Source of the DNA: a virus
DNA: 64,000 nt
Direction: 5' to 3' (one strand)
Virus record (IMG/VR): IMGVR_UViG_3300031920_000309
Position 1 is the first letter of the stretch. The number at the start of each line of letters is the position of its first letter. Positions 35,405 through 57,448 of the stretch are shown here, one piece after another. Made by a program: the position numbers and the translations under genes. The notes below the pieces were generated by a model. That model was not told the origin of the DNA. It searched no databases and saw only the letters and a program-made list of their open reading frames with translations.

Positions 35405-36580
35405 ATGGCTGAAAGTTTCATAAGGAGACCGATCGACTTCATCTTCGATTTCGCCACAGTAAACGTGAGCGCGGGAGAAGAAGTTCGTACCGGCGAGCCA
35501 AGTTATGGCTACGAGGTCGACGGCAGGGCCGCCGTCAAGAACTACGAACTCGACAACGAGTCTGTTATGGAAATCGAAGGGATTGAAATAATGGGCCCCA
35601 ACAACGTAACGTACAGAGAAAAGCTGAAGGCGGTTAGGCTCGTTATCGACGGGAAAGAACACAACGAGATGTCGTTCAATGAGCAAATGTGTCCGGCAAT
35701 GCTTGGTGGCGCTCTGAACGTGGTACCTGACTTCAGGGACGGGTATGTATGTACCAATCTGGGGCGAGGAATGCTCGCGGGCGGTGACCCAGCAAACGCA
35801 ACTCCGAAGGTAGGACCTGGTCAGGATCTGCTTATCAGCGTAAACATGCCAAGGCTGACCGAAGGAGGCGCGGCAACCGTCAGCACCCCGATGAGAGTGA
35901 GGCTGCACACGATTCAGATCCGAGGAGAACACAAGCTCAACGAAGTGCTAGAACATTATGGGCATCTGACTAGCGGAAATGTCAATCAGTCATGGAGCAT
36001 GGGCGACCTGGAGAACACCATGGCCATGCCACTCAAGACGATCGAGAAAACTGTGGGTGACGGGGCATTTGGGTTAGCAGATTGGACCAGTCTACACGGC
36101 GGAAATGAAGCAGACCTACCGTACATCGAGAACTACATTACGTATGCGCAGAATTCTGCCGCGACCACGCCAAATGCTTGGTACCAATTCACCATGGAAG
36201 GGCAGCGCGTCGACCAGACGTTCCAGGAGCTAAACTGGAATTTCACACAGAGAGACGCACTGAAGTTGACCCACGTTGGGATGATGACGCACAACAACAC
36301 CGAGTGGGTAAGGCTGTGGAAAGACGGAAAGCCGAAGGTGCCTGAGTTCCGCGTGACACCGGCAACCAACTCGCTGCTGATGCCACAGGGCCGATGGACC
36401 AACACACCACAGCACAACGGGCCGACCAGGCTTGGTAGGTCGTACTGGGTGTGGAACGAGCATGGCGCGATAGAGCTGAAGGACAACGGGACGGCAGTTC
36501 CTGCATGGGCCGCAGTGCCGACAACTGGCGCGATGCTCGCTGTGTGGGGTAAGAGGTTCCACCTTCGCGGGACCGAGTGA
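35405..36580 (+). CDS. Putative capsid protein family A, copy 1 (double jelly-roll-like)
   Basis: 391 aa, two beta-rich halves; shares EIEG.EI, FNE..AP, T.K.GP, RYITYA.N, LTHVG, AVWG with two paralogs. Confidence 0.6.
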   Translation: MAESFIRRPIDFIFDFATVNVSAGEEVRTGEPSYGYEVDGRAAVKNYELDNESVMEIEGIEIMGPNNVTYREKLKAVRLVIDGKEHNEMSFNEQMCPAMLGGALNVVPDFRDGYVCTNLGRGMLAGGDPANATPKVGPGQDLLISVNMPRLTEGGAATVSTPMRVRLHTIQIRGEHKLNEVLEHYGHLTSGNVNQSWSMGDLENTMAMPLKTIEKTVGDGAFGLADWTSLHGGNEADLPYIENYITYAQNSAATTPNAWYQFTMEGQRVDQTFQELNWNFTQRDALKLTHVGMMTHNNTEWVRLWKDGKPKVPEFRVTPATNSLLMPQGRWTNTPQHNGPTRLGRSYWVWNEHGAIELKDNGTAVPAWAAVPTTGAMLAVWGKRFHLRGTE

Positions 36581-36969
36581 TAATCATGTACGCATCTTGG
36601 CATTTAGGCACATCGGAAGTAACGACAACCACCAAATTCGGGGTTGAAGGATATTGGGCCAAGCTGCCGGACGCATTCCCACCGATCCAGTACATCCGGA
36701 CCACATCAATCGCGGTGCCAGCCGACGGGAACACCCGTGGTTGTATCGTAACAATTGTCGAGACCACGACCGGCGACAACGGGTACGGCCCAGTACAATA
36801 CCACATAGATGCCAGGGGTATAATACAATACCAAACTGGTGATAAGTGGTTCTTGTTCAGAAGCAGGCCCGACCTGAGACTGAACCAAGAGGAACGACCG
36901 CAGATAGTATATACCCAAGTACAGTTGTACTATCGAGCATTGCCCGAAGTAGGCACCATAGGAGCGTGA
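36577..36969 (+). CDS. Small beta-rich structural protein, tandem copy 1
   Basis: MYASW.GTS.VTT.TKFGV.G.WA.LPD.FPPI family. Confidence 0.7.
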   Translation: MIIMYASWHLGTSEVTTTTKFGVEGYWAKLPDAFPPIQYIRTTSIAVPADGNTRGCIVTIVETTTGDNGYGPVQYHIDARGIIQYQTGDKWFLFRSRPDLRLNQEERPQIVYTQVQLYYRALPEVGTIGA

Positions 36970-37370
36970 TTAGCATGTATGCATCATGGCTAATCGGAAC
37001 GTCTGCAGTAACAACCGTGACCAAGTTCGGGGTTGCAGGACACTGGGCAAGATTACCAGACGCGTTCCCGCCAATACAGTTCATCAACACAACGTCAATT
37101 GCATTAGCAACAATGCCAACGAACGGATGTGTGGTGACAATCGGCGAGACAACGACTGGCGCAAACGGCCCAGGTCCGATCATTATGATCAGAGACCGCC
37201 GCGGTGTCGAACAATACGTGAAGGGTGACCGGTGGTTCAGATTGCGAAGTGGACCAGCAAATTCAAACGAAGCTGCGGTCGATCCAGCCGGGATACAAGT
37301 ACAGAGAGTGTTCACTCGGATCGAGTTGTATTACCGGGACAGTGTCGAGTTAGACACAGTGGGGGCATGA
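36966..37370 (+). CDS. Small beta-rich structural protein, tandem copy 2
   Basis: Paralog of both neighbours; GTGA overlap. Confidence 0.7.
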   Translation: MISMYASWLIGTSAVTTVTKFGVAGHWARLPDAFPPIQFINTTSIALATMPTNGCVVTIGETTTGANGPGPIIMIRDRRGVEQYVKGDRWFRLRSGPANSNEAAVDPAGIQVQRVFTRIELYYRDSVELDTVGA

Positions 37371-37771
37371 TTGAGATGTATGCCACATGGTTGGTAGGAA
37401 CGTCCGAAGTGACAACCGTGACCAAGTTCGGGGTTGCAGGACACTGGGCAAAACTGCCCGATGTATTCCCGCCAATAGAGTTCATCAACACAACGTCGGT
37501 AGCAATAGGAGCAATGCCATACCGAGGGTGCATCGTAACGATCGTTCAGACAACGACCGGCGACAACGGCCCCGGACCGGCAATAATGACAAGCGATCGG
37601 CGCGGTGTTGAAGCGTATGTAAAGGGTGACAGGTGGTTCCGTCTGAGAAGTGGACCAGCGACCCTGAATGCATTGGCAGTAGACACGGACAACATAGACG
37701 TACAACGAGTGTACACACAAATAGAGTTGTACTACAGAGACAGGGTAGATGGTGGAGAGATCACCGCGTGA
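37367..37771 (+). CDS. Small beta-rich structural protein, tandem copy 3
   Basis: Paralog with long identical nucleotide runs to copy 2. Confidence 0.7.
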   Translation: MIEMYATWLVGTSEVTTVTKFGVAGHWAKLPDVFPPIEFINTTSVAIGAMPYRGCIVTIVQTTTGDNGPGPAIMTSDRRGVEAYVKGDRWFRLRSGPATLNALAVDTDNIDVQRVYTQIELYYRDRVDGGEITA

Positions 37772-37800
37772 TCAACCCACCCAACTTTTCTTTTTTCTAT
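37772..37800 (+). terminator. U-rich archaeal terminator at a convergent junction
   Basis: CTTTTCTTTTTTCTATTTT after the stop codon. Confidence 0.55.
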
Positions 37801-38906
37801 TTTGTGTATTTGTCGTAGAACGTCTGGGGTACCAGATCGAGTTTTGCCATGAGCCAGAACAACGGTCGAAGTCGTTTGAACCACGGGCGGTATGTTTTAT
37901 AGTCCGTATGATCGAGTGGCGGACGATCCATTATATCACAACCGAATTCCGCGGAACCAACACCAAGCCGGTGTAATACAGTTTGTTTGGTGGCAGAACC
38001 AAATGCAGGATACGAACGAATTGTTTTCAGCGCATCGTCTCGATCCATCTGACCAGACCGCACCAGCGCAGAATACTCAACCAACCTGAGATCTATACCG
38101 AACTTGTGGTACAGATAGTAGTCATCACAAAACTCGGTGAGGGTGTTTTCTTTGTGGTGACCGCCGTACCATCTCCACCCGAACCTTTTCGCAAGGTATT
38201 GTTTTGCACCTTCCTTGTCATAATCCAGATAGTACAATGGCCGAACATGCTTGATGCGTTTTACGAGGGTCCACCACAACCAATCTCTGAGCCACAGATT
38301 AGGGAACGTCTTAAGTATGCCGCCAGACACCTCATCGACATACTTGCCATCAAAATAGAACCAACCAGGGGGCGTAACCCCTTCAGTCCTAAACGAATGA
38401 CCGTTCAATATGTATTTGATGCCGTACATTTCGGCAGCTCTATACGCACACACCGCCAGCGCAACGTCCACAGGAGCATCGAGTTCTGGTACCCCGGCAC
38501 GCAAAAACGCGCGGGTGATATCATCATACTCGTTAAGATCACACCGGAACCGCATACAACCGACGCCAAGTTCTTCAAGCACAACCTTCATGTTATGTTC
38601 AGCGATGTCCGTGTTCCAACCATTGTCACAATGAACGGCGAGTGGCCGCAGTCCGTTTTGGACCGCAAGATCAAGCAGGTACGACGAATCGCACCCACCC
38701 GAAATACCCACAACACAATCGTACGGCTTGTTTTTGCCAGACTTTCGTATTTTGTCAACCAGATCGTCCAAGAAAAACGCACCGGCAGGACCAGTTGGAC
38801 ACTTCTCACACATCACATCGTGTTGTTTACAGTAGTTACATTCACCAAACGAATCAAACTCTATGCCCGGGATGCTGTCGTCCATGACACAGCGAGAACA
38901 TCTCAT
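37797..38906 (-). CDS. N-acetyl sugar amidotransferase (WbpG/WbuX-like, PP-loop)
   Basis: CSRCVMD...CNYC N-terminus; YDCVVGISGGCDSS; VHCDNGWN; YGGHHKEN. Confidence 0.92.
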   Translation of the reverse strand: MRCSRCVMDDSIPGIEFDSFGECNYCKQHDVMCEKCPTGPAGAFFLDDLVDKIRKSGKNKPYDCVVGISGGCDSSYLLDLAVQNGLRPLAVHCDNGWNTDIAEHNMKVVLEELGVGCMRFRCDLNEYDDITRAFLRAGVPELDAPVDVALAVCAYRAAEMYGIKYILNGHSFRTEGVTPPGWFYFDGKYVDEVSGGILKTFPNLWLRDWLWWTLVKRIKHVRPLYYLDYDKEGAKQYLAKRFGWRWYGGHHKENTLTEFCDDYYLYHKFGIDLRLVEYSALVRSGQMDRDDALKTIRSYPAFGSATKQTVLHRLGVGSAEFGCDIMDRPPLDHTDYKTYRPWFKRLRPLFWLMAKLDLVPQTFYDKYTK

Positions 38907-39407
38907 TCAGATACCACCATAACCTGCTCCACCGTTAGTTACTTTTCTATACCGAAGCACACGTGCCGGATTACCCGCAGCCACCGCAAATGGGAATATG
39001 CTCTTGGTGGCCACGGCACCGGCGCCGACCATGACACCTTCACCGATTTCAACACCAGGCATAATGATTGCCCCGACACCGATATCAACATTGTCGTGGA
39101 TGCGAACAGGCCAATACACAAGGTCGTTGTCTATTATCGGAGAATCCCAACCAACGCCATCAATCTTGTGTGTAGACGTGATAATCTTCACATGAGGCCC
39201 GATACCAACATTGTTGCCAATGATAATATCACCAGCACCGTGTATATACACACCCTCTCCTATCCACACATCATCTCCGATTGTTATGCCATTACCATAA
39301 CCACCATCCAAGTATGTACCACAACCGATGGACACACGAGCGCCAACACGGATGTTACTACCATTACTATAAGACACACCACGGAACCGACCAGTAATTG
39401 AGTCCAT
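38907..39407 (-). CDS. Hexapeptide-repeat (LbetaH) acyltransferase
   Basis: IGDDVWIG, IGNNVGIG, IGVGAIIMPGVEIGEGVMVGAGAV, GNPARV. Confidence 0.92.
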   Translation of the reverse strand: MDSITGRFRGVSYSNGSNIRVGARVSIGCGTYLDGGYGNGITIGDDVWIGEGVYIHGAGDIIIGNNVGIGPHVKIITSTHKIDGVGWDSPIIDNDLVYWPVRIHDNVDIGVGAIIMPGVEIGEGVMVGAGAVATKSIFPFAVAAGNPARVLRYRKVTNGGAGYGGI

Positions 39408-39411
39408 ACTA

Positions 39412-40371
39412 TCACCTACCTTTTGCCCATTCTACAAAGCATCCCCATTTCTCAGCAATAACCGACGCATGGTGATGCGACCGGACCCACAGTGGCGCAT
39501 GACGAGACACCAAACCAGCCCCAGCATCATACGATTTGATGTCAAGGATGCGCGTTTTGACCACCTCGTACATGTCAAGACCATCACACGGTTTAACAGG
39601 GAAATCTGGGTAGATCATATAGCACCAAGGCCCGATGTAAGAGACAACGTGCTGCTGAAGAACCATTGCTTCGAGTACGTTAAGTCCATATGTCGGCATG
39701 ACCAGATCGTCGATCACAACGTGTGATTTTGCTTTCCGTTTGATCGTCTGTTCCCACGACAGGCCAGATATGGCATCAAACTTGACACCAGCCAGATCAG
39801 GATCAGATTCAAGTCGGGTGATAAGTTCACCACCCTTCGATCCGGGATTGGTATGCGCATGGCAAACCGTAAACTCATCGTTCTTTTCAATACCGTCAAC
39901 AAGTTCTACGATTTCGTCGATGTCAACGATGACAAAATCAAATGGTACGCCAATCAGTTGAGTTGTGAGAGTTTCGTCCTGAGGGGGAGTCACGACAACC
40001 AAATCACGTTTGATCTGAGCCATAAGCACCTGATCAACGGTGTGACGAAGGCCAGACCCGACACCAACGATACAATGGTTATTCGGAGTCAGGTACCGAC
40101 CGAGTGGAAGTTGTGGGATGTCAACGATCGAGTCCAGGAATATGAAATACGTACAATTCGAAGCATATTCCAACACGGTCGCAATTCCAACATTCTGCTC
40201 AAATACCCAGTCAACTGGATATTGGAGATAAGACTCACCAAACACCAGGCACCTCGCATCCCACCCAAGATATTTCTTCATCGCCTTAGCCATCAACCAA
40301 CCCTGGTTCCCGGAGTCCATACCCCCGGTCCCAGGGCCAATGCCAGCCACTATGAGAACTTGTTCGTTCAT
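39412..40371 (-). CDS. GT-B (GT4-like) glycosyltransferase
   Basis: VIDDLVMPTYGLNVLEAMVL signature. Confidence 0.8.
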   Translation of the reverse strand: MNEQVLIVAGIGPGTGGMDSGNQGWLMAKAMKKYLGWDARCLVFGESYLQYPVDWVFEQNVGIATVLEYASNCTYFIFLDSIVDIPQLPLGRYLTPNNHCIVGVGSGLRHTVDQVLMAQIKRDLVVVTPPQDETLTTQLIGVPFDFVIVDIDEIVELVDGIEKNDEFTVCHAHTNPGSKGGELITRLESDPDLAGVKFDAISGLSWEQTIKRKAKSHVVIDDLVMPTYGLNVLEAMVLQQHVVSYIGPWCYMIYPDFPVKPCDGLDMYEVVKTRILDIKSYDAGAGLVSRHAPLWVRSHHHASVIAEKWGCFVEWAKGR

Positions 40372-41348
40372 AATAAATCACGCTCTTCAAGGTGCCCGAC
40401 CAATCTATCATAACTATTTTTCAGGTTGTAATACTTGCACGCTTCTGTACCACGTTCCGCCTCCCACGTGGCGAACTCGGCATCGGTAAGCAACTTCTCA
40501 AGAAGAATGTCAACAGCAACCTCATCATGAGGAGACACCGCGAGTTCTGGCCATATGTGATTCATGGCATGTATGGTGTTCGACCCGATGGTAGGAACAC
40601 CGAGCGCGGCAGCCTCGACAATGCCTCTGCCGTACGTGTAGTCTGGGGCGAGATCGATATTGACGAAACAATCACCGAGCATATCAAGATACACCGCATA
40701 CGGTGACCGATCGACGATGTCATCGAACAGCGAGTCCAATGCAACGACGACAGTTGTATCGTTGTAGTTCATGAGGGCGGTGCGGATGCCGAACTGCTCT
40801 CTGTCGTGCCTCAGCCGGTACGTGCCGTAATAATAAGTGGCCCAGGTGTACATATACCGATGGTATTGGCAGGCCACCAACGGAGGTAGTGACGGCTGTT
40901 TGCGGTACGACATGATTTTGTCAACGTCCACTGGATGTGGGATAGCTGGAACGTCGTAACCGAGATAGTGCTCAAGACGACGAGCACCGTTCGGCTCAAC
41001 ATGGAATACAAAGTCCGCAAGCGCGAGCTGCTGTCGCAGGATGAGAGGATCTATGCTATTCCACAATCCAATCGCGAAGTCAACCTGTGTGACGATCTTT
41101 GTGTCACTATCAGGCCCAATGGCATCACGGATCGCAGCGATGTAGCTGGCATTGCTTGGGGTATAGTTGACATGGATTATGTCGAACTGTTCTATCAGTT
41201 CTTTCGTTAGATTCGCAGACATGTCACCCTTTTTGCCATGCGTATCAAATGCCACCGGCCAATTGAACAATCCACCAAGCACAATCTGATCCGATCCCGC
41301 AGGCATCTGGGCGCCCGAGAACAAACAATAAGATATTCTTCTAGTCAT
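40368..41348 (-). CDS. GT-B (GT4-like) glycosyltransferase
   Basis: YTYGRGIVEAAALGVPTIGS signature. Confidence 0.8.
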   Translation of the reverse strand: MTRRISYCLFSGAQMPAGSDQIVLGGLFNWPVAFDTHGKKGDMSANLTKELIEQFDIIHVNYTPSNASYIAAIRDAIGPDSDTKIVTQVDFAIGLWNSIDPLILRQQLALADFVFHVEPNGARRLEHYLGYDVPAIPHPVDVDKIMSYRKQPSLPPLVACQYHRYMYTWATYYYGTYRLRHDREQFGIRTALMNYNDTTVVVALDSLFDDIVDRSPYAVYLDMLGDCFVNIDLAPDYTYGRGIVEAAALGVPTIGSNTIHAMNHIWPELAVSPHDEVAVDILLEKLLTDAEFATWEAERGTEACKYYNLKNSYDRLVGHLEERDLL

Positions 41349-42318
41349 GTTTATCACGCGCGTTTTCTGTGTACCAATCAACAGTTTTTTCGATCCCGTC
41401 TTCAAACGACACGAGCGGATCATATCCAATCAGATCCCGTGCCAAATACGTGTTTGCGATATGCCTTCGCACGTCACCAGGCCGGTCATCTTGCCAGTCA
41501 ATCTCGACACTAATACACATTGCATCGATTATGGCGTCAATGACTTCATTGGTACTGGTCTCTTTACCAGACCCAATGTTGACAACCCGCCCTCGCGTTT
41601 TGGGCTGCTTGTACATATCGATTGCAGCACGAACTACATCAGTCACATAGCTATAATCCCGAGTTTGTTCACCGTTACCATATATGACAGGACGTCCACA
41701 ATTGAGCAGCCGTTTAATGGTAACGGGGATGATAGCCGCATACGTGCCGCAGTTCTGACGTGGACCAAATATATTAAACGGACGAAGTATTGCGCAATCG
41801 ATCCCAAACGTCTCGCGATACGACTGGATCAACATGTCGGACGCTGCTTTGCTGGCAGCATATGGAGTCAGTGGGCACAACGGATGATCCTCGCCCATGC
41901 TGACACGTTGGCTCGTGCCGTACGCTTCGGACGATGAGAAGTGTATCAACGTGTCGTAATACTCCTCACACAGCAACTCGCACATGGTTGAGGTGATGTT
42001 GATGTTGTTCAAGAAACTTTCCCGTGGGTGCACCAACGACGCGGGCAGCGGCTGTACCGCGAGATCGAACACCACATCAACACCACGGCTGGCCATGATA
42101 TCACGCGTGGTATTGTAATCTGCCACACCACATGCCGCGTCATACAACACGACACCAGGGAAGTGTGTGTCTGCGAGGTTGTCATACGAACCCAATGACA
42201 TATCGTCGACGACTACAACCTGGGACACCCGTTCTTTCACCAACGCATCGACAAGATGGCTGCCCACAAACCCGGCACCCCCGGTGACCATTACAACTTT
42301 ATTCTTCAGGGACAACAT
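41341..42318 (-). CDS. NAD-dependent nucleotide-sugar epimerase/dehydratase (extended SDR)
   Basis: VTGGAGFVGSH, SSSEAYG, PYAASK, RPFNIFGPRQ, TRDYSYV. Confidence 0.95.
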   Translation of the reverse strand: MLSLKNKVVMVTGGAGFVGSHLVDALVKERVSQVVVVDDMSLGSYDNLADTHFPGVVLYDAACGVADYNTTRDIMASRGVDVVFDLAVQPLPASLVHPRESFLNNINITSTMCELLCEEYYDTLIHFSSSEAYGTSQRVSMGEDHPLCPLTPYAASKAASDMLIQSYRETFGIDCAILRPFNIFGPRQNCGTYAAIIPVTIKRLLNCGRPVIYGNGEQTRDYSYVTDVVRAAIDMYKQPKTRGRVVNIGSGKETSTNEVIDAIIDAMCISVEIDWQDDRPGDVRRHIANTYLARDLIGYDPLVSFEDGIEKTVDWYTENARDKHD

Positions 42319-42322
42319 TTGA

Positions 42323-43447
42323 TTATAACCCCGCGTACACATACCGTTTCAGCAGCATTTCGATTTCGTTCACAACCCGTTCCTGGCCCTCTACCCCCAG
42401 ACCATGATACATCGGCAAAGTAAGCAGCTGATGATACAACCCCAACGAATTGCCAAAATCCGCGCACCGATCAACGTGAACAGCATAAAACGGCTGCTGG
42501 TGAAGAGCGTACGTGCCAATCTGGGTTTCGATCCCAACCCTTTTCAGGTCTCGGATCAACGCGTCACGCCACGACGCTTGGTCGACGTTTATGCAGTACG
42601 ATTGGTATGTTTGTCGTTCGTCACCAGTCGATGGAACGGGGGTGGTAACGTGATCAACGTCTTTCAACAACTCGTCGTATGTGCGTGCCATCGCGTTGCG
42701 TTCGGTAATTATCTGATCAATCTTACTCATCTGAACAAGACCGATCGCAGCATTGATGTCAGACATTTTCATGTTATATCCTGCACATTCTATGCGGCCA
42801 TCGGCCCACCCGAAGTTCTTGCGAACACGCATCTCATCGGCAAGCCCGCCGTCGTTCGTGACCACCATACCGCCTTCCCCAGTCGTAATGATCTTGCGCG
42901 GATGGAACGACAGAACCGACATATCGGCAAACGACCCAGTCATCTCACCATTTGATTGGCGAGCACCGAAACTGCATGCACAATCTTCGATTACGATATG
43001 GTCCGAGTCACACAACCTATGATCCCACACGTCATCGCGTATGGGACGTCCGCCCCAAGACACGAGCATCGTGGCACCAATGGGATACGGCATGCCCATC
43101 ATGTGATCAAGAGCATTGACACCAATACACTGAGTATGTGGATCAACATCAACCAACATTGGGTGGAACCCGTTGTGTATCACGCTGTTTGCCGTAGCAG
43201 GGTGCGTGAAATCGGGAACAATTACCCGCGTGGAATTCATACAAGCCCTGGTAACACGAACTGCCAAGTCCAGCCCCATTGAACAGGACGGAACGGCGAT
43301 GGCATGTTTCACACCAACGTATTTGGCGACAGCTTCCTCGAACTCGATGACAATTTCACCTTCGGTCAGATGTCCAGAGTCCATGACATCAGCAACAGAC
43401 TGTTTTTCTTCTTCACCGACCCACGGACGCATCAGAGGAATGTTCAT
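42323..43447 (-). CDS. DegT/DnrJ/EryC1/StrS sugar aminotransferase
   Basis: VIEDCACSFG, SFHPRKIITTGEGG (PLP Lys), GYNMKMSDINAAIGL, LTLPMY. Confidence 0.95.
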   Translation of the reverse strand: MNIPLMRPWVGEEEKQSVADVMDSGHLTEGEIVIEFEEAVAKYVGVKHAIAVPSCSMGLDLAVRVTRACMNSTRVIVPDFTHPATANSVIHNGFHPMLVDVDPHTQCIGVNALDHMMGMPYPIGATMLVSWGGRPIRDDVWDHRLCDSDHIVIEDCACSFGARQSNGEMTGSFADMSVLSFHPRKIITTGEGGMVVTNDGGLADEMRVRKNFGWADGRIECAGYNMKMSDINAAIGLVQMSKIDQIITERNAMARTYDELLKDVDHVTTPVPSTGDERQTYQSYCINVDQASWRDALIRDLKRVGIETQIGTYALHQQPFYAVHVDRCADFGNSLGLYHQLLTLPMYHGLGVEGQERVVNEIEMLLKRYVYAGL

Positions 43448-43653: not shown

Positions 43654-43689
43654 AGTGAAATATGGCATGTGACATAGACACGTGGGCAT

Positions 43690-44805: not shown

Positions 44806-44806
44806 A

Positions 44807-45133
44807 ATGAACATCAGGCGCACCCCGTTCATCGTGGACAGTTACGTGTTCGCGACCGGCGGAGTTGATGATATATTACAACTGGATTTCGTCGAGGACC
44901 GAGCACAAGGACTCGGTGTGCCCGCCAAATCAATGGTAATACGAAACGCAGGCGCCGGTACTATTTATTTCATATTCTCCGAAGATGGAGAACACTGGTC
45001 TGGGATCGGATCACTGGCAGCCGGTGCGCTCGAGGGGTACAACTACGAGGATGGGATTGAAATCACGCTGATGCACGTATGGGCATCTGCTGCAGGAACT
45101 ACCGTCACGATAAGGGCAACACCAGGGATGTGA
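44807..45133 (+). CDS. Small beta-sandwich structural protein
   Basis: KSMVIRNAGAGTIYFIFSEDG...LAAG pattern. Confidence 0.55.
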   Translation: MNIRRTPFIVDSYVFATGGVDDILQLDFVEDRAQGLGVPAKSMVIRNAGAGTIYFIFSEDGEHWSGIGSLAAGALEGYNYEDGIEITLMHVWASAAGTTVTIRATPGM

Positions 45134-45139
45134 TTTTAG

Positions 45140-45475
45140 ATGCCTATATTAGGACGAGACGAGCCAGCAACAACAATAACACAACTAAAAATAAGTATTG
45201 CAGCGGCAGGACCGAACGAAATAATCGCAACACCTGGGGCGGGCAAACAGTTATGGATACACAAATTAATGTTATCGGTTGCAAGAGGAAGTCAGACTGC
45301 TATCACATACCAGTCGGGTGCAAACGAATTGTCTGGTGCGATGCAAGCAGATGTTATTGCAGACGACCTGGGATCATCCCCCATGAAATGTAATACAAAC
45401 GAAGCGTTCAATGTGACGTTATCTGACGCAGTTGCTGTGACAGGGTACGTGATGTACCAGGTGGTCAACGCATGA
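45140..45475 (+). CDS. Small single-jelly-roll-like protein, copy 1
   Basis: IAAAGPNEIIATPGAGKQLWIHKL...CNTNEAFNVTLS; paralog of 46625-46972. Confidence 0.65.
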   Translation: MPILGRDEPATTITQLKISIAAAGPNEIIATPGAGKQLWIHKLMLSVARGSQTAITYQSGANELSGAMQADVIADDLGSSPMKCNTNEAFNVTLSDAVAVTGYVMYQVVNA

Positions 45476-46972: not shown

Positions 46973-46974
46973 AA

Positions 46975-48663
46975 ATGAGTTATATATATAGAAGACCTGG
47001 ATTGGAACTGTTGGCAACGTTGCCTGCACATTACGAACGTGATCAGAACTGGCAACAGAAAGGATTTGCAACAGCAGACGAACGTTACACGTTGCAAAGT
47101 CCGAACTTGATGACGGTGAACATAGATGGTGACGGATACGTATTAGACGGACAACAGGATTACGAGCTGACCACGTTAACAAACTGGGACAATTACACCA
47201 TAACCGATTGGGCCGCACTGACTGCTTACGAAGTCGGCGATCTGGTTTTGCCCGTTGTTGGTGGTGCAAACTGTATTTATGTTTGTGCTGTAGCGGGTAC
47301 GAGCGGGGCGGCTGAACCTGCCTGGTCAGTAGTTAAAAACGCAAACAACGTAGACGCAACAGCCCAGTGGACTACAACATTTGATAACACGATAGCTGCG
47401 CAACGCGCGGGATACGATCATTACGTGTATGCGTGTGTACCGGCAGGAGGAACTACACCAGACATCATACTGAGTGACAACGTGACAATTCCGATTGGAT
47501 ACACAACTGACAATTCTCGTAAAATAAGCGGGTTCCATTGCGAGTGTGTGGCAATTGGTGTGATAGGTGGGCATGTTCTAACCGGTTACGTGGCTGGAGA
47601 CATTCTGCCATTGTCTGTTTGGGACCTAAACTTCAGATCGGCTGGGTTACAAGAAGGCATGATCCACGACGAATTAGCCCATCAATGGGCCGGAATCTAT
47701 ATGAACTCAGGAACTGGCGCGAACACCGTTTCTGTTTACGGGGCTACAGCAACAGATTCTCGTGATTGGATGGATTCCGTTGATGATTGTGGTGCAGTTG
47801 GATGCAAGTTGCCAACCGACGATGAGTTCCAGATCATAGCTCGTGGTAGCAACGAAGAAACCAACGCAGCAGGAGGGGCAGATCCTGTGACCACAGGAGG
47901 ACACCTGGACACTGCCGGACGAAGGATGACTTCGGACGATGGTTGTGAAGATTGTTGTGGTGCATGGAACCAATGGACCAGGACGTATGGATATCGTGCA
48001 GACGGTCTGACAATGGAAATTGTTGCCGGAGAGAAAACCGTCACGGTATATCATGATGTAGTGCCAGACGGGAACCAGATTTATCTGAAATTTGACAACG
48101 GTCAGCCATATCTATGCTGTAACATGGCAAACGACACGGTTGACAAGATAATTACGCTTGGCACTGATTACAAAATAACAATCGTACATGATGTTGGTGC
48201 AGCAGGCGGGTTGCCAATTTATTTCGATGACGACGCAACACAACCATCGAGACTGTTGGTAAACAACACGATACTAACGAAAGATTGTTACATACTGAGT
48301 AACAGCCCATCGTACATGTTAAAACTGAAACACGACGCGGGAGCGGCAGGAAACGGATCTGCCCTCCACTTCGATGACGGGGGGGACGAACGGTTGGAAT
48401 CCAATTGCGCAGGAACAGCGAACGCTGCAATCGACCTGGCATACTTTGATTCAGCTGAACTAGCGTTCTTGTACGAGGACTTACCCGGCGCGAAAGGATC
48501 GTTGTACAGACAAGGAACATACGGAGATGCGTTCTTGCTTGCCGGTGGAAATTGGGCGAATGCGGCGGACGCCGGTTCGCGGTATCGGAGTGCGCTTTAC
48601 TCTCGCTGGTATGCGGCTGCGAGTCTCGGTTGCCGGGTGGTCGCGGAGTCGAAGACGTCGTGA
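46975..48663 (+). CDS. Mtd-like receptor-binding protein (CBM-like module, Mtd N-terminal domain, C-type-lectin/FGE domain)
   Basis: WAALTAYEVGD..YVCAVAGTSGAAEP; YVYAC..PIGYTTDNSRKISGFH; LPTDDEF; CEDCCGAWNQW; AGGNW..GSR..RW..GCRVVAE. Confidence 0.88.
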   Translation: MSYIYRRPGLELLATLPAHYERDQNWQQKGFATADERYTLQSPNLMTVNIDGDGYVLDGQQDYELTTLTNWDNYTITDWAALTAYEVGDLVLPVVGGANCIYVCAVAGTSGAAEPAWSVVKNANNVDATAQWTTTFDNTIAAQRAGYDHYVYACVPAGGTTPDIILSDNVTIPIGYTTDNSRKISGFHCECVAIGVIGGHVLTGYVAGDILPLSVWDLNFRSAGLQEGMIHDELAHQWAGIYMNSGTGANTVSVYGATATDSRDWMDSVDDCGAVGCKLPTDDEFQIIARGSNEETNAAGGADPVTTGGHLDTAGRRMTSDDGCEDCCGAWNQWTRTYGYRADGLTMEIVAGEKTVTVYHDVVPDGNQIYLKFDNGQPYLCCNMANDTVDKIITLGTDYKITIVHDVGAAGGLPIYFDDDATQPSRLLVNNTILTKDCYILSNSPSYMLKLKHDAGAAGNGSALHFDDGGDERLESNCAGTANAAIDLAYFDSAELAFLYEDLPGAKGSLYRQGTYGDAFLLAGGNWANAADAGSRYRSALYSRWYAAASLGCRVVAESKTS

Positions 48664-48677: not shown

Positions 48678-48707
48678 CCCCAATATACAACAAAGGTGAT
48701 ATGAACA

Positions 48708-50175: not shown

Positions 50176-50187
50176 GGTGGCATTGAT

Positions 50188-51198
50188 ATGGTTTTCATGG
50201 GAATTTCCAGTATCCGGGTCGAGATATCAGAGCTGAGTGTATCGAAATCGGGGTGGACAACGTTGTTCGTCGATAAAAATTTCGCTGCTGCATCAGACGA
50301 CAACGATGGGTACTCTTGGTCAAGGCCAAAGAAAACGATTGGTGGTGCTCTTGCGGACGCAAAATCATGGTGTAAAATTTATGTAAATAGTGGACAATAT
50401 GAAGAAAACATCACAATTTCATACGAACATGTACAAATAATCGGTGTCGCAAAAGACGGTCCGGACATTGTCAACCTAAAATCAAGCATAGGAACACCAT
50501 TAACAATAACGGCTGGCTTCTGTGAGCTACAGACCTTAGCTGTAGAAGCTATAGATCAGCACGGAATCCAGGTTACTGCGCCAGGACACATATTAAATGA
50601 CGTAGTGGTAGCTATCACAAACACAACCGGTGTCGCCAGGATAGGGATATGGCTTAACGATTCGGACAGCACTGAAATTAAGAACTGCCATATAGACGGA
50701 AACGGCGACGACGAGGTGATCGGTATACTTGTTGGCGATGATACAGTTGGTGCGGAAGTCACGGAAAACTATATCACAGGATGTGGAGATGGGATTGGTG
50801 TGGGATGTGGAGCGGGAGGAGCTTGTACAGCAAACGGATATGCGATCGGAATTGCGGAATCAGCACAACGATGTATAATCAGCGACAACGAAATAATAAC
50901 TAATTGTGTGGGAGTTTACTTTTACAAGGTCGGAGCTGATGCGTTCAAGGGACATGCTGTCTTGCACAACGCATTCTGGGAAAATTGCTCATACGACGTG
51001 TTTGATTTATATGCTCCAGAAATAAGCGCAATTGCAATAAGAGAAAATTATTATGGTTACAGCGGCTGGTTCGTGGATTCCAACAACGACGGGCGGGCCG
51101 ACATCATCGTAGACTGTAACACAAACAAAGACCACGCACCCCTATTCAATCCCCAGACCTGGCGGACGGAAGCTATTTCTAGAGCGGGGTACATATGA
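50188..51198 (+). CDS. Right-handed beta-helix (pectin-lyase/NosD-like) protein
   Basis: PKKTIGGAL, G.Y.ENI start; periodic IKNCHI, VTENYI, ISDNEI, VLHNAF repeats. Confidence 0.85.
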   Translation: MVFMGISSIRVEISELSVSKSGWTTLFVDKNFAAASDDNDGYSWSRPKKTIGGALADAKSWCKIYVNSGQYEENITISYEHVQIIGVAKDGPDIVNLKSSIGTPLTITAGFCELQTLAVEAIDQHGIQVTAPGHILNDVVVAITNTTGVARIGIWLNDSDSTEIKNCHIDGNGDDEVIGILVGDDTVGAEVTENYITGCGDGIGVGCGAGGACTANGYAIGIAESAQRCIISDNEIITNCVGVYFYKVGADAFKGHAVLHNAFWENCSYDVFDLYAPEISAIAIRENYYGYSGWFVDSNNDGRADIIVDCNTNKDHAPLFNPQTWRTEAISRAGYI

Positions 51199-52076: not shown

Positions 52077-52234
52077 AAAAGATGCCAAGGATTGTTAAAA
52101 AAGGAGAAATCCCGGGACAACTTGCAAAGATCAAGCTGAAAGGAAAAGGAAAGATATTATCAGAGGTAAACGGTCTGAAAATGAAACGACGAGTCAAAGA
52201 AATAAAAATACCAGAATGGAAGGTTGGGAAATGA
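52070..52234 (+). CDS. Lys-rich 54-aa basic protein (not in ORF track)
   Basis: MVKKMPRIVKKGEIPGQLAKIKLKGKGKILSEVNGLKMKRRVKEIKIPEWKVGK; coupled on both sides. Confidence 0.6.
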   Translation: MVKKMPRIVKKGEIPGQLAKIKLKGKGKILSEVNGLKMKRRVKEIKIPEWKVGK

Positions 52235-53418
52235 GATTACCACCATACGCAGGGACACCAAGCCATGTTTCCGTTGCCGACAGATTTGATGATACTGATA
52301 TAGATACTGCGGTGTGGGGGACAAAAGTAGAAGTGGGTGGTACGGGAATATCCGAAGTAGCGGGAGAGTTGAAGATAACAAATCCAGCAGGAGCACTCGG
52401 GTTATCCTATTTACCTTCAGCGTTCAAGTGGGGAAACTACGCGATCGTTGAGGTTCAACTAAAAGTCGTAGATGGCGAGGCAGGTGGAGACGGGGAACGC
52501 TGTGAAGCATCATTGCACTTATTCAAGGATACAGACAATTATATCAAATGGGGTGTATACAGAGATACTTCGGAGGCTGTCAATTCGTCCGGGTACTTAA
52601 GATACAACATGGCAGGAGCAGGAGAAGTCGCTGTCGATGTGACAGTCGCGGTTGTAGATAACATTTATCATACATTCAAACTTATACTATACGAATCAGC
52701 AGTAGAACTTTGGTATGACAACACGTACCAAACAGCATTCGCTTTTCCAGGTCTAATAAACTACGAGATACGGTTAGAAGCAGGGACACAGGACGCGGGA
52801 GATGTAATCGACATCAGGTTCGACACGTTCAAAGCTCTGAACATGGCAGATCCGTTCGGTACTGATTTGACAGGAGTAACCACAGACTTAACAACGTTAC
52901 TAACACGGCTGTCTGCAGTAAGAGCCGGGTATCTTGATTATTTGGCAGACGGTACTTATGGGTTGGCTGCAATAGAAACGTTGGTAGACGACCTAGAAAC
53001 AAGATTGTCTGCAGCAAGAGCAGGATATCTGGACAACCTAGCAGGATACCAAGTATCAGCACCAGGGTCAGGAACGGTGACGTTAACAAACGCCACCGCA
53101 GTAGCAGTTGAGTTCGCGACAGGAACATTCGGATCGGTGTTCGAATTGACGTTTATTGCGGATTTGAACGAAGTAGACACCAATGGGGCCGCAGATACCA
53201 TTTTAACAGTAACAATATGGAGAAAGATCGGAGGGGTGTACACAACACTGCCAAACGACATATACGCATGGCAAAAATCTGCAACCCTTGACAGAAACAT
53301 GGACTTGGACCACATCCGATGCGGAGAAGATACAAAAATCCAGTTCAAACTTGATTTGGTACCGGGAGCAAACGTTAACATTCCATATAGGTACATAATC
53401 AGAAGATTACGGGCGTGA
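52231..53418 (+). CDS. Structural protein: lectin-like beta domain, coiled coil, C-terminal beta-sandwich
   Basis: DRFDDTDIDTAVW start; repeated RLSA.RAGYLD.LA coil. Confidence 0.7.
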   Translation: MRLPPYAGTPSHVSVADRFDDTDIDTAVWGTKVEVGGTGISEVAGELKITNPAGALGLSYLPSAFKWGNYAIVEVQLKVVDGEAGGDGERCEASLHLFKDTDNYIKWGVYRDTSEAVNSSGYLRYNMAGAGEVAVDVTVAVVDNIYHTFKLILYESAVELWYDNTYQTAFAFPGLINYEIRLEAGTQDAGDVIDIRFDTFKALNMADPFGTDLTGVTTDLTTLLTRLSAVRAGYLDYLADGTYGLAAIETLVDDLETRLSAARAGYLDNLAGYQVSAPGSGTVTLTNATAVAVEFATGTFGSVFELTFIADLNEVDTNGAADTILTVTIWRKIGGVYTTLPNDIYAWQKSATLDRNMDLDHIRCGEDTKIQFKLDLVPGANVNIPYRYIIRRLRA

Positions 53419-53424
53419 TGACAA

Positions 53425-56169
53425 ATGGTAATCGTTTCAGGCAAACTGCCAAACCTCGCAGCAGCCAAAGAGATAAAACTGGTGTTGTACACAAACCCAA
53501 CTGCTGCTGCCCTAACAGGATATCGAACAATGATCCCGGGGGCCGCGGTTGCTGAAAAACTGAACGGCGGCATGGACGACGGATTGGTACGGGTGATCGA
53601 TGTTGGAACAGGGCTGGTTGTACCACACTGGGGCGAGAGTTACGGTGCTGGTCCAGCAGATGCCAAAGTTTGGCACAAAATAAGTCCAGACGCAAACAAA
53701 GTAGAACCGATTATCATTTACGATGTACCACCAAGCCCTGCTCCACCAGATGGTGGTGGTGGTGCCGAAGATGATGACGACCCAGACCACAAGAAAGTTG
53801 TAACCGACATTACACCAACAAAAGGCCATACCATTTATTTGTTATTTGCAGGAGGGGCAACACCAGCCGGTTACGACTTGGTATCCGGTGCCGGTGGTTA
53901 TTTTGCTGATAAGTTCCCGGTGGGAAACAAGGTGGGGATTGTCGCCACGAGCGATACGAGTGCACCAGAATACGCGGGGATTGTGTGTTCAAACCAAGTG
54001 TCTGATGCAAACCACGATGCCGTGGCCAATACCGGGGGGGAAGCATCACAATGGACTATGCGAACACACAACCACAACACAGACAGTGCAAACTTGGTAT
54101 GCAACGCATCTGACGCGAAACCGGTGTACAAAACACTGAAAATGGTACGAGTACACAAAATCAAAGCGATGATACCAAAAGACACCATCATAATATTCGA
54201 TGATGCTGTCCCAACAGGGTTCACGAGATATGCAGCACAAGATGGAAATTATGTCCGGTGTGCTGCAGTGGTCGGCGCGGGGGGGGGGAACGCGACACGC
54301 ACGTTCGCGGTGAACGGTGTCACGGAAACAAAGTCACCAGGGCACACCGATTGGAATGCCGATGGCAATGACATGTATACGTTGCCCGCGCATTCTCACA
54401 CTTTCAACAAGACCACAGCGGCAGTGAACAATTTTCCACCAACACAAAACATCATACTTGGTCAAGCAGACAATGACCTGGCTTACATTCCAGCCGGGGC
54501 CATACTAATGTTTGATGAGACGCCACCAATAGACGACTGGGAAGTGGTTGCGGCACTGAAAGGTAAGATGTTGAAGGGAAACGCAGCATATAACGATGGG
54601 GGTGGCACGGAGACCGTCACACCAACGCAACTTGTAGGAAACACCTCAATCAAAACGTCATCATATGGATTTAACAACGCATATGTCTCAAACACATTTT
54701 ATAGCCACCACCACATACTTACAATCGATTTTGACCCAGTGACAACGTACCCCGCTTGCAGACAAGTGGTGTTTGCGAAAGCCAGGCACCAGATAGATGA
54801 TGACGGGTACGAAGCTAATATTATTGCAAGTGACGTGGTGGATTCTCGTTTAACCGCTGCATATACAATATACAGTAACTGTGGCAGACACATAGCTGTC
54901 AACAACAAAGGATTGTTGCAGGGAGTATTGCACGCGGCATATACGGACGGAGCAAGTGGAACAGACCATGCTTATCATGCATATTCGATCAATGGTGGAG
55001 AAAATTGGACACCAGAACGAATAGACGTTGGTTATGCAGGAAACCAAATTTCATCGGATCTTGTAATAGACGCGAATGGGAATGTACATTTCGTGTGGGC
55101 GGAATATGACGTAGGTGACGCAAACCACCGGCAAATAATGTACAGACGGCTAAGTTCGGCAGCGGTGTGGGGAGCAGTAGAAACTGTGTCACAGGCAGGA
55201 AACCCGTTTTACCAGATGGACCCGTGTATCCAAGTAAAGAACGACGGGGAAACGATTGGCGTGGTATGGGTAGGACAAGGATGGGGGGCTGGAAACAACG
55301 ACATGGACGTAGCATACCGAGAAAGAACAGGAGCAGGAGTATGGGACATAGCAGAAACACACATCACGGCGAACGCTGCCGCAGGATTCGATTACAGACA
55401 CCCAGCACTGGATTATGATTTAGATGATTACCCACACGTCGTGTATGACTACCTAAAAGCAGACTGGACAACATTGGACGTGTATTATAATTACGAGATC
55501 GGTGCAGGATGGCAAGCACAAGAACACGTGAACAACGACGGGGGGGACGCAGGGGTATGTTCAACAAACTCGAACATCTTACTAGACAAAGACAACAACA
55601 TACACGTTGCATACTTGAAAGTATCGTTAGTATCGCCATACCTGCACACGCTGTACTATAAGAACAAGGCAAGAGGAGGGGCATGGGGGGCAAAAGAAGA
55701 AGTGTTAGCAGCGACCGTGGCAGAAGGCGCCAGAGCACCACAAATACAGCTGGACGGAACGGGACAGGTGTATTGTACATATGCACGATTGTATGATGCG
55801 GGAGGGGGCAATTTCCTCGTAGACGGACAATACAAAGTTCGGAGCAGTGGCGGTGTGTGGGGGGCAGCCGTAATCGTAATGCAAGACACGTGCAGAATGA
55901 TCACACACATCCAGATGCTATGGAGCCGACTACCACTGAAAGACGGGATATATCAAACATGGTCACAACAACACGTTGTCTGGGTATTCGTGAGAATACC
56001 AATATATGACAGTTATGTTGGCAACATCGAATTCAAGGCAGATCCAACGACAGTGATCGGAGACATAGATGATCCAGTCACGACAGAAACATACAGGTTC
56101 AGGCAAAGAGGAGCAATTTGTCGACAGAAAATAAACCACGGGAAAGTTACTCCGTACGCGATAGGATAA
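53425..56169 (+). CDS. 914-aa spike/fibre: DUF2341-like N-terminus, collar-like repeats, beta-propeller
   Basis: VRVID..VPHWGE..AKVWHKI; IP.G.I.MF..TPP repeats; blades D.NGNVH.VW, D.D.YPHVVY, DKDNNIHVAY. Confidence 0.75.
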   Translation: MVIVSGKLPNLAAAKEIKLVLYTNPTAAALTGYRTMIPGAAVAEKLNGGMDDGLVRVIDVGTGLVVPHWGESYGAGPADAKVWHKISPDANKVEPIIIYDVPPSPAPPDGGGGAEDDDDPDHKKVVTDITPTKGHTIYLLFAGGATPAGYDLVSGAGGYFADKFPVGNKVGIVATSDTSAPEYAGIVCSNQVSDANHDAVANTGGEASQWTMRTHNHNTDSANLVCNASDAKPVYKTLKMVRVHKIKAMIPKDTIIIFDDAVPTGFTRYAAQDGNYVRCAAVVGAGGGNATRTFAVNGVTETKSPGHTDWNADGNDMYTLPAHSHTFNKTTAAVNNFPPTQNIILGQADNDLAYIPAGAILMFDETPPIDDWEVVAALKGKMLKGNAAYNDGGGTETVTPTQLVGNTSIKTSSYGFNNAYVSNTFYSHHHILTIDFDPVTTYPACRQVVFAKARHQIDDDGYEANIIASDVVDSRLTAAYTIYSNCGRHIAVNNKGLLQGVLHAAYTDGASGTDHAYHAYSINGGENWTPERIDVGYAGNQISSDLVIDANGNVHFVWAEYDVGDANHRQIMYRRLSSAAVWGAVETVSQAGNPFYQMDPCIQVKNDGETIGVVWVGQGWGAGNNDMDVAYRERTGAGVWDIAETHITANAAAGFDYRHPALDYDLDDYPHVVYDYLKADWTTLDVYYNYEIGAGWQAQEHVNNDGGDAGVCSTNSNILLDKDNNIHVAYLKVSLVSPYLHTLYYKNKARGGAWGAKEEVLAATVAEGARAPQIQLDGTGQVYCTYARLYDAGGGNFLVDGQYKVRSSGGVWGAAVIVMQDTCRMITHIQMLWSRLPLKDGIYQTWSQQHVVWVFVRIPIYDSYVGNIEFKADPTTVIGDIDDPVTTETYRFRQRGAICRQKINHGKVTPYAIG

Positions 56170-56198
56170 AATACAATGGATAACAGAGGTGATACGTG

Positions 56199-56330
56199 AT
56201 GAGAGTCGATGATGAGAAACAGCGGAAAATGCTATTGGATTTGCTGGGTGCGGCGACGTTCCAAGGAACAGCCATAGACGAGGTAGCCACACTAAAGAAC
56301 GCGATCGTGGGAGCGAAGGTTGGTGACTGA
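56199..56330 (+). CDS. 43-aa hypothetical protein
   Basis: GAGGTGA RBS; stop overlaps the next ATG. Confidence 0.55.
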   Translation: MRVDDEKQRKMLLDLLGAATFQGTAIDEVATLKNAIVGAKVGD

Positions 56331-57448
56331 TGGCGATTTTGCGCTGGCCCATGGACTTCCTATTTGACTTTACCAGCGTACCACTGTTAGCTGGCGACAA
56401 AGCCACGACAGGGGACAACATCGCACATACGACACTGGTTAATGGAAGCAGAATCCACCCCGCATGGGAGATGCCTGCCGATTCGGTAGGAGAAATCGAA
56501 GGTGTAGAGATTCTACTACAACCAGACGCAGCCACAGACATATACAACCCACTTGAGTACGTAAGAGTAGAAATAAACGAAGTAGAGATAGAAAACATAA
56601 CGTTCAACGAACTAACGGCTCCAATGCAGTCGGGAGGGACACCACCGGGGGGAGACCCATTCCGAGATGGTGGCGTGTGTATAAATATCGGAAAAGGGCT
56701 ATTGGTGGGGGGAGATCCGACCACACCGACAATCAAAATCGGGCCAAAAGATAAAGTCAGAGTCGTGGTAAAGAACACCAGGGCTGCATATGGCGGTGTT
56801 ACAATAAACGAACTGTTGGTGGTTCGGTTATGGGTGGCGACTGCAAACCAGTTTGATCTCGAACAAAAGTGGACGGACGGACGGATACCGATAGGAACAG
56901 CATCAGCACCGAAAACAATTCTGGCCGAGATAGAAAAATGGACAGAAGGAAACGGAGGCGCGGAAGTGAAGACGCCGCATTTCCAGAGATACATCACGTA
57001 CGCAAAAAACATAACACCAACCACACAAAACGACCCTTACACGTTTGCAAGAAGAGCAGGCACAACAGAAGATCTATGGTCGGACTTGGACTGGAGAGTA
57101 GACACATCCAGAGTCGTGCAACTAACGCACGTGGGGGTTGCTGAAGACGAATCAAATGGTATCCACGTTGCACCGAACGTGTCGTGGATCAAACTTCCTC
57201 ATTATCCAGTTGAGCTGCCGATAGTTTATCCGGTGGCGCCGTACCCGAGCCTGGGACAATTCCCGATGCCGTTGAATCGGAACATGGACCCAACGTTTGG
57301 AGCACCCGGTAAGTTGCCACAGCCGATTAATATTTATAACGAGAACTGTTCACTAACGATACGTGACAGGGGAGATCCAGTCGTCGCATGGGCGCCAGGA
57401 GACGTGGGTGTAAAAATCGCGGTATGGGGATATATATATTATGTGTGA
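56330..57448 (+). CDS. Putative capsid protein family A, copy 3
   Basis: GEIEGVEI, FNELTAP, FRDGGVCINIG, TIKIGP, RYITYAKN, LTHVGV, IAVWG. Confidence 0.6.
   Translation: MAILRWPMDFLFDFTSVPLLAGDKATTGDNIAHTTLVNGSRIHPAWEMPADSVGEIEGVEILLQPDAATDIYNPLEYVRVEINEVEIENITFNELTAPMQSGGTPPGGDPFRDGGVCINIGKGLLVGGDPTTPTIKIGPKDKVRVVVKNTRAAYGGVTINELLVVRLWVATANQFDLEQKWTDGRIPIGTASAPKTILAEIEKWTEGNGGAEVKTPHFQRYITYAKNITPTTQNDPYTFARRAGTTEDLWSDLDWRVDTSRVVQLTHVGVAEDESNGIHVAPNVSWIKLPHYPVELPIVYPVAPYPSLGQFPMPLNRNMDPTFGAPGKLPQPINIYNENCSLTIRDRGDPVVAWAPGDVGVKIAVWGYIYYV

Follow-up and report, generated by a model that had tools for sequence, protein, structure and literature searches.

The major capsid proteins of a number of viruses fold as a double jelly-roll (DJR); in P3 of PRD1, B345 of STIV and P2 of PM2 a single chain of ~270-400 amino acids (aa) carries two jelly rolls, and the genomes of these viruses measure 10-18 kb. 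To our knowledge, the known prokaryotic DJR viruses have genomes of ~10-20 kb and the large DJR viruses all infect eukaryotes. Giant viruses can carry several DJR capsid paralogs per genome (e.g., Vp54 of PBCV-1 and its paralogs), and such paralogs have been proposed to occupy special, fibre-bearing positions of the shell. In the archaea, DJR capsid proteins that are invisible by sequence were found with AlphaFold2 in ANME-1 viruses of the proposed order Coyopavirales, among which the chaacviruses have uniform genomes of 10-11 kb and a protein-primed polymerase (PMC9894754). For Bathyarchaeia, the viruses described to date have tails or are filamentous or spindle-shaped (PMC10848311). Our literature search found no description of a DJR archaeal virus larger than 40 kb or of one with capsid paralogs. 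Here we analyse a stretch of 64,000 nucleotides of viral DNA (IMG/VR record IMGVR_UViG_3300031920_000309; hereafter the window, meaning this whole stretch) from a marine-sediment metagenome, which encodes three paralogous proteins with a predicted DJR fold (family A, copies 1 to 3) and a fourth protein with two tandem jelly-roll domains (family B).

The reading that we favour, on a slight balance of probability, is that the window represents a new lineage of archaeal DJR viruses with large genomes, with copy 1 as its major capsid protein, family B as a component of the vertex or a minor one, and copies 2 and 3 as derivatives associated with fibres. Family A proteins would assemble into head-to-tail trimers, i.e., pseudo-hexameric capsomers, and copy 1 would be the ancestral family A gene, serving as major capsid protein of archaeal double-stranded DNA viruses with genomes of ~40-85 kb, with family B placed at the vertex or elsewhere as a minor capsid component. 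Copies 2 and 3 would have been duplicated within their own sub-lineage, diverged fast and become embedded in host-recognition cassettes, where they may anchor Mtd-like or fibre-like proteins as specialised capsomers or bases and not take part in the bulk lattice. That copy 1 builds the capsid, that family B belongs to the vertex, that copies 2 and 3 anchor fibres and that the particle is tailless and icosahedral is what we infer from the evidence given below. Such a virus would resemble PRD1, STIV and PM2, whose capsid proteins have the same two-jelly-roll chain as family A and are its best whole-chain capsid matches, and, like these viruses, it encodes a second jelly-roll protein near the candidate capsid gene. 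It would differ from all three in its genome size (40-85 kb here), in the lack of any detectable sequence similarity, in its three paralogs and in that no FtsK/A32-type ATPase was found. The Coyopavirales (Chaacviridae and Ixchelviridae) are likewise archaeal viruses of marine sediment or seeps with a capsid DJR seen only by modelling; genomes at least 4-8 times larger and the fact that no protein-primed polymerase was seen set the present lineage apart from the chaacviruses, by description and not by capsid sequences. Giant viruses have eukaryotic hosts, genomes above 300 kb and an A32 ATPase, whereas here the host would be archaeal and the paralogs occur in one sub-lineage only.

Family A consists of P0001 (copy 1, 35405..36580, + strand, 391 aa), which is universally conserved and is the candidate major capsid protein, and of two lineage-specific paralogs, P0002 (copy 2, 45472..46614, + strand, 380 aa) and P0003 (copy 3, 56330..57448, + strand, 372 aa). 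Full-length pairwise BLASTP gave 30% identity between P0001 and P0002 (E 4e-42), 30% between P0001 and P0003 (E 1e-48) and 45% between P0002 and P0003 (E 8e-104), and both the EIEG.EI motif and the terminal AVWG are fully conserved in the three-way alignment. The three open reading frames (ORFs) are true paralogs; the original prediction of three ~380-aa paralogs with shared motifs was exact in its coordinates and is confirmed by these alignments. A profile of the three paralogs matched 111 representatives (50%-identity clusters) among 1.84 billion proteins, which, truncated fragments aside, are 320-420 aa long. Pfam (E values up to 1) and PHROGs gave no match for P0001-P0004, P0004 being the family B protein, nor for 60 family A members, and the family A profile returned only noise from the PDB sequences. 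Scans of IMG/VR with the family A alignment and three single relatives were also without a match, as was tblastn of P0001, P0003 and P0004 against a collection of GenBank phages and archaeal viruses, a result that bears out the proposal of an undescribed lineage.

An AlphaFold2 model of P0003, for which the 60-sequence family alignment served as input, showed two beta-sandwiches (pLDDT 91.8, pTM 0.92); the fold of copy 1 is taken from this paralog model. In an exhaustive structural comparison covering 48,161 PDB chains, the best whole-chain capsid match was PRD1 P3 (1w8x) with Z 9.9 over 254 aligned residues, and the STIV major capsid protein B345 (2bbd) scored Z 9.8 over 249 residues. Lower whole-chain matches were obtained with PBCV-1 Vp54 (Z 8.4), PM2 P2 (2vvf, Z 7.9) and FLiP (Z 7.7), and with the capsid proteins of faustovirus, ASFV and SGIV at Z values below that of FLiP; Foldseek likewise returned the capsid proteins of Melbournevirus, SGIV, STIV and PM2. 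The model thus confirms for family A a predicted DJR fold with two jelly rolls in one polypeptide, and the comparison with STIV B345 and PRD1 P3 that had been suggested for this family came out as foreseen (Z 9.8-9.9). The original prediction had assumed capsid-like double jelly rolls in both families; this holds for the PRD1 P3- and STIV-like model of family A but not for family B, which is not of the capsid type. A three-copy prediction was made with P0028 (residues 16-348), a shorter and distant relative, using an alignment of our own making and thus a set-up outside the calibration of the tool, and gave 0.77 versus 0.00 for the best of three controls. The predicted interface brings residues 84-145 of one copy against residues 277-311 of the next, so that jelly roll 1 is set on jelly roll 2. 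This predicts a head-to-tail trimer for the family A relative, the geometry expected of a pseudo-hexameric capsomer. GH172 proteins are likewise trimeric, and the trimer prediction therefore backs oligomerisation and not a capsid role specifically.

The strongest argument for a capsid role comes from a distant relative, the near-complete ENA contig k141_49458 (loci L016 and L015 of our set of related loci; 41,154 bp), to which a JGI contig of 40,870 bp is similar. The window and this 41-kb relative have only two BLAST-detectable genes in common, the DJR gene and family B, and two genes that outlive all other similarity behave as expected of a viral hallmark capsid gene. In 25 JGI metagenome loci the copy-1 type is the sole DJR gene within the available DNA, and orthologs of copy 1 at syntenic positions show 32-99% identity and group with it in a quick maximum-likelihood tree (IQ-TREE). 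Copy 1 also carries its own TATA box and a strong ribosome-binding site, GGAGGT.

Several points weigh against this reading. Cellular GH172 proteins (8ic8, 7v1v) and a DUF2961 protein (4kq7) tie with PRD1 P3 and STIV in the structural comparison at Z 9.4-9.9, PHM and PNGase F also match the fold and rank after them, and the TM-scores of the family A model to capsid proteins are low (0.3-0.4, Foldseek); given the tie, structure alone cannot place family A among the capsid proteins. The polar residues K136, N227, T231, N234 and D346 are kept in family A and would fit an enzyme or binding site as well, and the trimer, besides the matter of calibration, was predicted for the distant relative and not for a protein of the window. 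No single jelly-roll penton was identified, the candidates being the domains of family B and the beta-rich X and Y proteins described below. A six-frame Walker-A scan together with Pfam and PHROG searches of the 64-kb window revealed no packaging ATPase of the FtsK/HerA/A32 type, and a 258-aa ATPase of the 41-kb relative, considered as a packaging enzyme, looks Sak4/DnaC-like. A packaging ATPase accompanies nearly all DJR viruses; as neither this enzyme nor a penton was identified, formal membership of the DJR-virus realm would be provisional. Furthermore, the genome runs at least 1.6 kb past the window, is thus larger than 65.6 kb and is not closed, and neighbouring clusters carry the label 'Uroviricota' in the ESM Atlas.

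The structural tie raises the question whether the DJR-fold proteins are instead trimeric glycan-binding or glycan-cleaving proteins of the virion, akin to GH172/DUF2961, PNGase F or PHM, that serve beside the fibres as heads for receptor binding or depolymerisation, with the capsid made by a protein of a novel kind or by one of the many other unannotated genes. According to the account in PMC12714852 of Krupovic et al. (2022), GH172 and DUF2961 have been proposed as cellular homologs of DJR capsid proteins. Such a role would agree with the Foldseek lists for both PDB and AFDB, which PHM and carbohydrate-binding proteins dominate, with the position of copies 2 and 3 beside fibre genes and of copy 1 beside a sugar-modification cluster, and with the conserved polar residues, the trimeric state of GH172 and the failure to find a packaging ATPase. 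GH172 and DUF2961, although of the same fold and trimeric as well, are cellular enzymes, whereas family A sits in the synteny of a viral structural module and has no glycosidase family match; nor did Pfam give any carbohydrate-binding match. The orthologs of copy 1 stand in a module behind a scaffold-like gene and not among fibres, and very distant genomes have no genes in common but the DJR gene and family B, a pattern typical of capsid hallmarks and unlike that of host-range proteins with their fast turnover. Neither the window nor the 41-kb relative offered another capsid candidate. On this evidence we consider a glycan-directed role unlikely, though it is the main rival of the favoured reading.

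Copies 2 and 3 behave differently from copy 1 in the tree, where they group together with 100% support, on a long stem and joined only by their own near-copies. Neither has a promoter of its own, while family B and copy 1 have TATA boxes. The closely syntenic 38-kb contig G001:C7, one of the contigs from the bins denoted G001-G003, contains family B, Y and an Mtd-like gene and has no copy 2 between Y and the Mtd-like gene. On contig G002:C62 the gene behind a copy-3-type gene (48% identity) is homologous to the N-terminus of the window protein at 57468-58154, the first 64 of whose 228 aa are 53% conserved beside the copy-3-type gene in L021/G002:C62. Within the window, copy 2 is flanked by a pair of paralogs, a 111-aa protein upstream (45140..45475, + strand) and a 115-aa protein downstream (46625..46972, + strand), which are 58% identical to each other (E 4e-37). 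Behind them lies the gene for an Mtd-like fibre or receptor-binding protein (46975..48663, + strand, 562 aa; second domain of Pfam Mtd at 2.3e-14, phrog_11262 'tail protein' at 5e-38). Copy 3 is followed by fibre-like genes for proteins of 228, 201 and 493 aa (57468..60194, + strand), of which the 228-aa and the 493-aa protein (58713-60194) gave PHROG matches of the tail-fibre type. We conclude that copies 2 and 3 stem from a lineage-specific, recent and fast-evolving duplication tied to fibre genes, and their products may be specialised fibre-bearing capsomers or capsomer-like bases.

The original prediction had gone further and proposed a mosaic, multi-paralog capsid. In such a shell all three paralogs would form the lattice as heterotrimers or position-specific homotrimers, comparable to the two-protein shells of Sphaerolipoviridae or the capsid paralogs of giant viruses. 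It is true that all three copies keep the full-length fold and the family motifs and lie in late operons on the + strand, and that a shell of large T-number could use position-specific capsomers. However, only the copy-1 type was found in the 25 JGI loci, in L001 and L007, in the 41-kb genome and in G001:C7, within the DNA available for each, so that a shell built from several paralogs does not characterise the lineage. Moreover, copies 2 and 3 sit on a long branch, lack their own promoters and are linked to fibre genes. The mosaic shell was not upheld, and we regard it as distinctly unlikely.

Family B is represented by P0004 (43771..44805, + strand, 344 aa), whose two tandem jelly-roll domains are each followed by helices and whose gene has a TATA box ~30 nt upstream. 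That it is an internal duplicate, as had been claimed for the 344-aa protein, is borne out by the alignment of one half with the other (residues 62-154 versus 248-332, z = 5.8; 0 of 300 shuffles reached the score) and by the AlphaFold2 model (pLDDT 83, pTM 0.85), in which a sandwich-plus-helix unit is repeated. The N-terminal domain resembles the jelly rolls of Ena/XepA (Z 8.4-9.1), and the C-terminal one has its matches in SPV1, whose capsid protein is a single jelly roll (Z 8.9), and in a jelly roll of the STIV turret protein C381 (Z 7.0). A whole-chain search with the model returned no DJR capsid protein, and the two-domain arrangement was without a whole-chain counterpart. Judged from the model, family B is an internally duplicated tandem jelly-roll protein and not a DJR of the capsid type. 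The gene adjoins the DJR gene in L001, L007, L009/L016 and L022. By analogy with the STIV turret proteins A223 and C381 (4ind), which are minor proteins with several jelly rolls and have their genes close to that of the capsid protein, and which family B matches in single domains only, not over the whole chain, its product would most likely be a vertex or minor capsid component. The small beta-rich protein Y (44807..45133, + strand, 108 aa) always comes directly after family B, with homologs in this position in L001, L007, L022 and L024.

The absence of tail and terminase genes was examined across the window and its relatives. Among window ORFs of at least 200 aa, Pfam and PHROG searches gave no match to terminase, portal, prohead protease, HK97 capsid, tail tube, sheath or tape-measure families, in line with the earlier statement that no HK97 capsid, portal, terminase or tail tube is recognisable. 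The same families were absent from the 41-kb relative, from 21 kb of an 84-kb relative contig and from the DJR-bearing contigs of bins G001-G003 (including the 38-kb G001:C7), while many TerL and HK97 genes lie on other contigs of those bins. Iterative jackhmmer searches with seven TerL seeds, including the TerL of ANMV-1, found nothing in 497 kb of DJR-bearing DNA, and the seeds detected one another. The corresponding HK97 control was insensitive, its two seeds having missed each other, and is not counted as evidence; the absence of HK97 refers to searches for sequence families, fold detection having covered part of the ORFs. Three proteins of the window do match PHROG 'tail' or tail-fibre entries, by way of fibre-type domains (Mtd, beta-helix and fibre C-termini), and such domains occur also on the spikes of tailless viruses.

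These matches could be taken to mean that the window belongs to Caudoviricetes, with HK97, portal and terminase genes that are unseen or too divergent and with the DJR proteins as baseplate or fibre-associated tail proteins. Genomes of 40-85 kb are typical of tailed viruses, the 'Uroviricota' labels of the Atlas are attached to look-alike clusters, 'minor tail proteins' of Gordonia phages are among the BFVD matches (at low TM-scores), and the window is shorter than the genome. The Pfam and PHROG searches of the window, the 41-kb relative and the DJR-bearing contigs nevertheless gave none of these morphogenesis genes, and the TerL search with its working controls was negative. The gene upstream of P0145, the scaffold-like gene that opens the structural module, lies on the opposite strand, so that no portal-terminase block occupies the canonical position. 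We consider a tailed virus very unlikely. The claim that the virus is tailless, which accompanied the other predictions, stands in so far as no morphogenesis genes of Caudoviricetes were detected, but it is an argument from absence on an incomplete genome of more than 65.6 kb (Logan contigs end at window position 745 and at about 65,618); tailless is the better-supported reading and is not demonstrated. Of P-loop proteins, the six-frame Walker-A scan of the window brought up only a DEAD-box helicase and a Rep-like protein. The latter, encoded at 62638, was rejected as a packaging ATPase, being a distant relative of the Rep protein of a Methanothermobacter plasmid; a search for it in the JGI metagenomes and in bins G001-G003 gave no match.

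A bolder form of the favoured reading, tentative and on balance doubtful, is that an archaeal lineage with 40-85 kb genomes, of family level or higher, builds large capsids from a DJR protein without sequence kinship to any known one, packages its DNA with neither a terminase nor an FtsK/A32 ATPase and, in one branch, has turned duplicated capsomers (copies 2 and 3) into docking platforms for receptor-binding fibres that can be diversified. On this bolder reading the viruses would stand in size between the tectivirus-like and the giant DJR viruses, and copies 2 and 3 would provide a prokaryotic parallel to the specialisation of capsid paralogs in giant viruses. If the large-genome DJR lineage is real, its members would, at 40-85 kb, be the largest prokaryotic DJR representatives. 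The case is relevant to the evolution of capsid size, of capsid-gene duplication and of fibre attachment in the realm. Should a closed genome confirm that both known packaging enzymes are missing, a new question of DNA encapsidation would arise. The ~111 clusters at 50% identity are spread over public metagenomes, including those of marine sediment and the subsurface; the current virus-detection markers appear to miss or mislabel these contigs, and the family A alignment could serve as a hallmark profile.

The structural module around copy 1 is recognisable in the relatives by its gene order, which runs from a P0145-like gene through a small gene and one whose product has a hydrophobic segment to the DJR gene, X, family B, Y, a beta-helix gene and a gene for a protein of 400-550 aa. 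In the window it is opened by P0145 (31477..32589, + strand, 370 aa), a coiled-coil protein rich in Q, E, M and A, of low complexity and helical, which has a TATA box ~30 nt upstream of its ATG and a weak match to phrog_8914 'virion structural protein' (E 0.0023). Its position is kept in L001, L007, L020 and several JGI loci, and it is a candidate scaffold or tape-measure protein. It is followed by P0146 (32593..32931, + strand, 112 aa), a small conserved protein without a family match that is syntenic in L001, L019 and L020, and by P0147 (32918..33691, + strand, 257 aa), which is 25-77% identical to the syntenic genes of relatives and in which a hydropathy scan found one hydrophobic segment, making it a candidate for a membrane-associated virion protein. 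Behind copy 1 come three tandem paralogs of ~130 aa, X1 (36577..36969), X2 (36966..37370, starting with GTG at 36966 or ATG at 36975) and X3 (37367..37771, starting with ATG at 37367), all on the + strand. They are beta-rich and 52-56% identical to one another, jackhmmer finds three copies in the window, and in most of the 25 JGI loci between one and three X genes stand in tandem behind the DJR gene; the X proteins are candidates for a penton, cement or decoration protein.

Between X3 and family B the module is split by a sugar-modification cluster on the - strand (37797..43447), identified by Pfam and PHROG matches, which encodes an ATP-PPase-like protein of 369 aa, a hexapeptide acyltransferase, a 319-aa protein, a GT4 glycosyltransferase, an NAD epimerase/dehydratase and a DegT aminotransferase. 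The cluster is found at the same place in G001:C7, and in L001 this place holds the 319-aa and GT4 genes alone. A + strand ORF at 37983-39401 (472 aa) overlaps these real minus-strand genes and was rejected as spurious. Further downstream are a right-handed beta-helix protein (50188..51198, + strand, 336 aa; Pfam Beta_helix, DUF1565 and NosD) with orthologs in L007 and L022, and two large proteins of the late operon, of 400 and 914 aa (52216..56169, + strand), without Pfam or PHROG matches; the 400-aa protein has a repeat-bearing ortholog in L007. Two homing-endonuclease genes of the NUMOD3 type were noted, one at 30400-31401 (- strand), which abuts the structural module, and one at 51195-52076 (+ strand), which also has an HNH domain and lies inside the late operon; the latter holds an exact 30-bp repeat (51422-51451 and 51719-48). 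The Mtd-like protein at 46975-48663 is of the kind targeted by diversity-generating retroelements, and a full element of this sort is present in ANMV-1, from a similar habitat. No reverse transcriptase was matched in the window.

The window contains TATA boxes ~30 nt before start codons and ribosome-binding sites of the GGAGGTGA type. Together with the archaeal replication and recombination genes of the relatives, these signals fit an archaeal host, as had been predicted from the sequence. The 41-kb relative encodes Hjc, a GINS51 domain, a DHH phosphoesterase, a helicase and a faint TBP-like protein, and no protein-primed polymerase was seen in it. In L015 the protein with the GINS51 C-terminal domain, the large helicase and the DHH-family protein lie at 5743-8105 and 16981-17844, and their combination suggests a virus-encoded replicative helicase complex similar to CMG. 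The two ends of k141_49458 form an exact inverted repeat whose length, 141 nt, is also the k-mer size of the assembler; this suggests either that the genome is linear and its terminal inverted repeats are longer, or that an inverted repeat was collapsed. Contigs of relatives have been deposited in metagenome-assembled genomes (MAGs) labelled Acholeplasmataceae, Patescibacteria and Parcubacteria (JBBACV01, JBAZKI01 and JBAZMT01; L017-L020). One such bin has at least 10 terminase genes on other contigs, and the bins are contaminated with viral contigs; since they are rich in phage contigs, the MAG labels say nothing on the host, and Parcubacteria, Patescibacteria and Acholeplasmataceae were rejected as host evidence. 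The Mtd-like gene and the methane-seep origin of ANMV-1 had also made this virus a candidate for the identity of the window, which was rejected because a terminase is present in ANMV-1 (KP703175), whose only gene in common with the window is a DUF5131 gene.

A giant gene of the window encodes a protein of 2881 aa (12754-21399, - strand) without a Pfam or PHROG match, which has a counterpart of 3590 aa at the same position in L007. At about residues 740-795 it shows a Cys...His...Asn/Asp pattern resembling the core of transglutaminase-like cysteine peptidases, and residues 1413-1501 gave a non-significant match to lambda gpD (E 0.15). This giant gene is flanked by genes for an SNase-like nuclease and PEGA domains (10014-10904 and 10901-12763, both on the - strand, and 21707-22825, + strand), and the SNase-PEGA gene is conserved in L007, L020 and L022 with 37-51% identity. 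An anti-restriction-like protein is encoded at the start of the window (99-701, + strand; phrog_2059, E 3e-32), and the single tRNA gene of the window specifies tRNA-Pro(UGG) (24886-24959, - strand).

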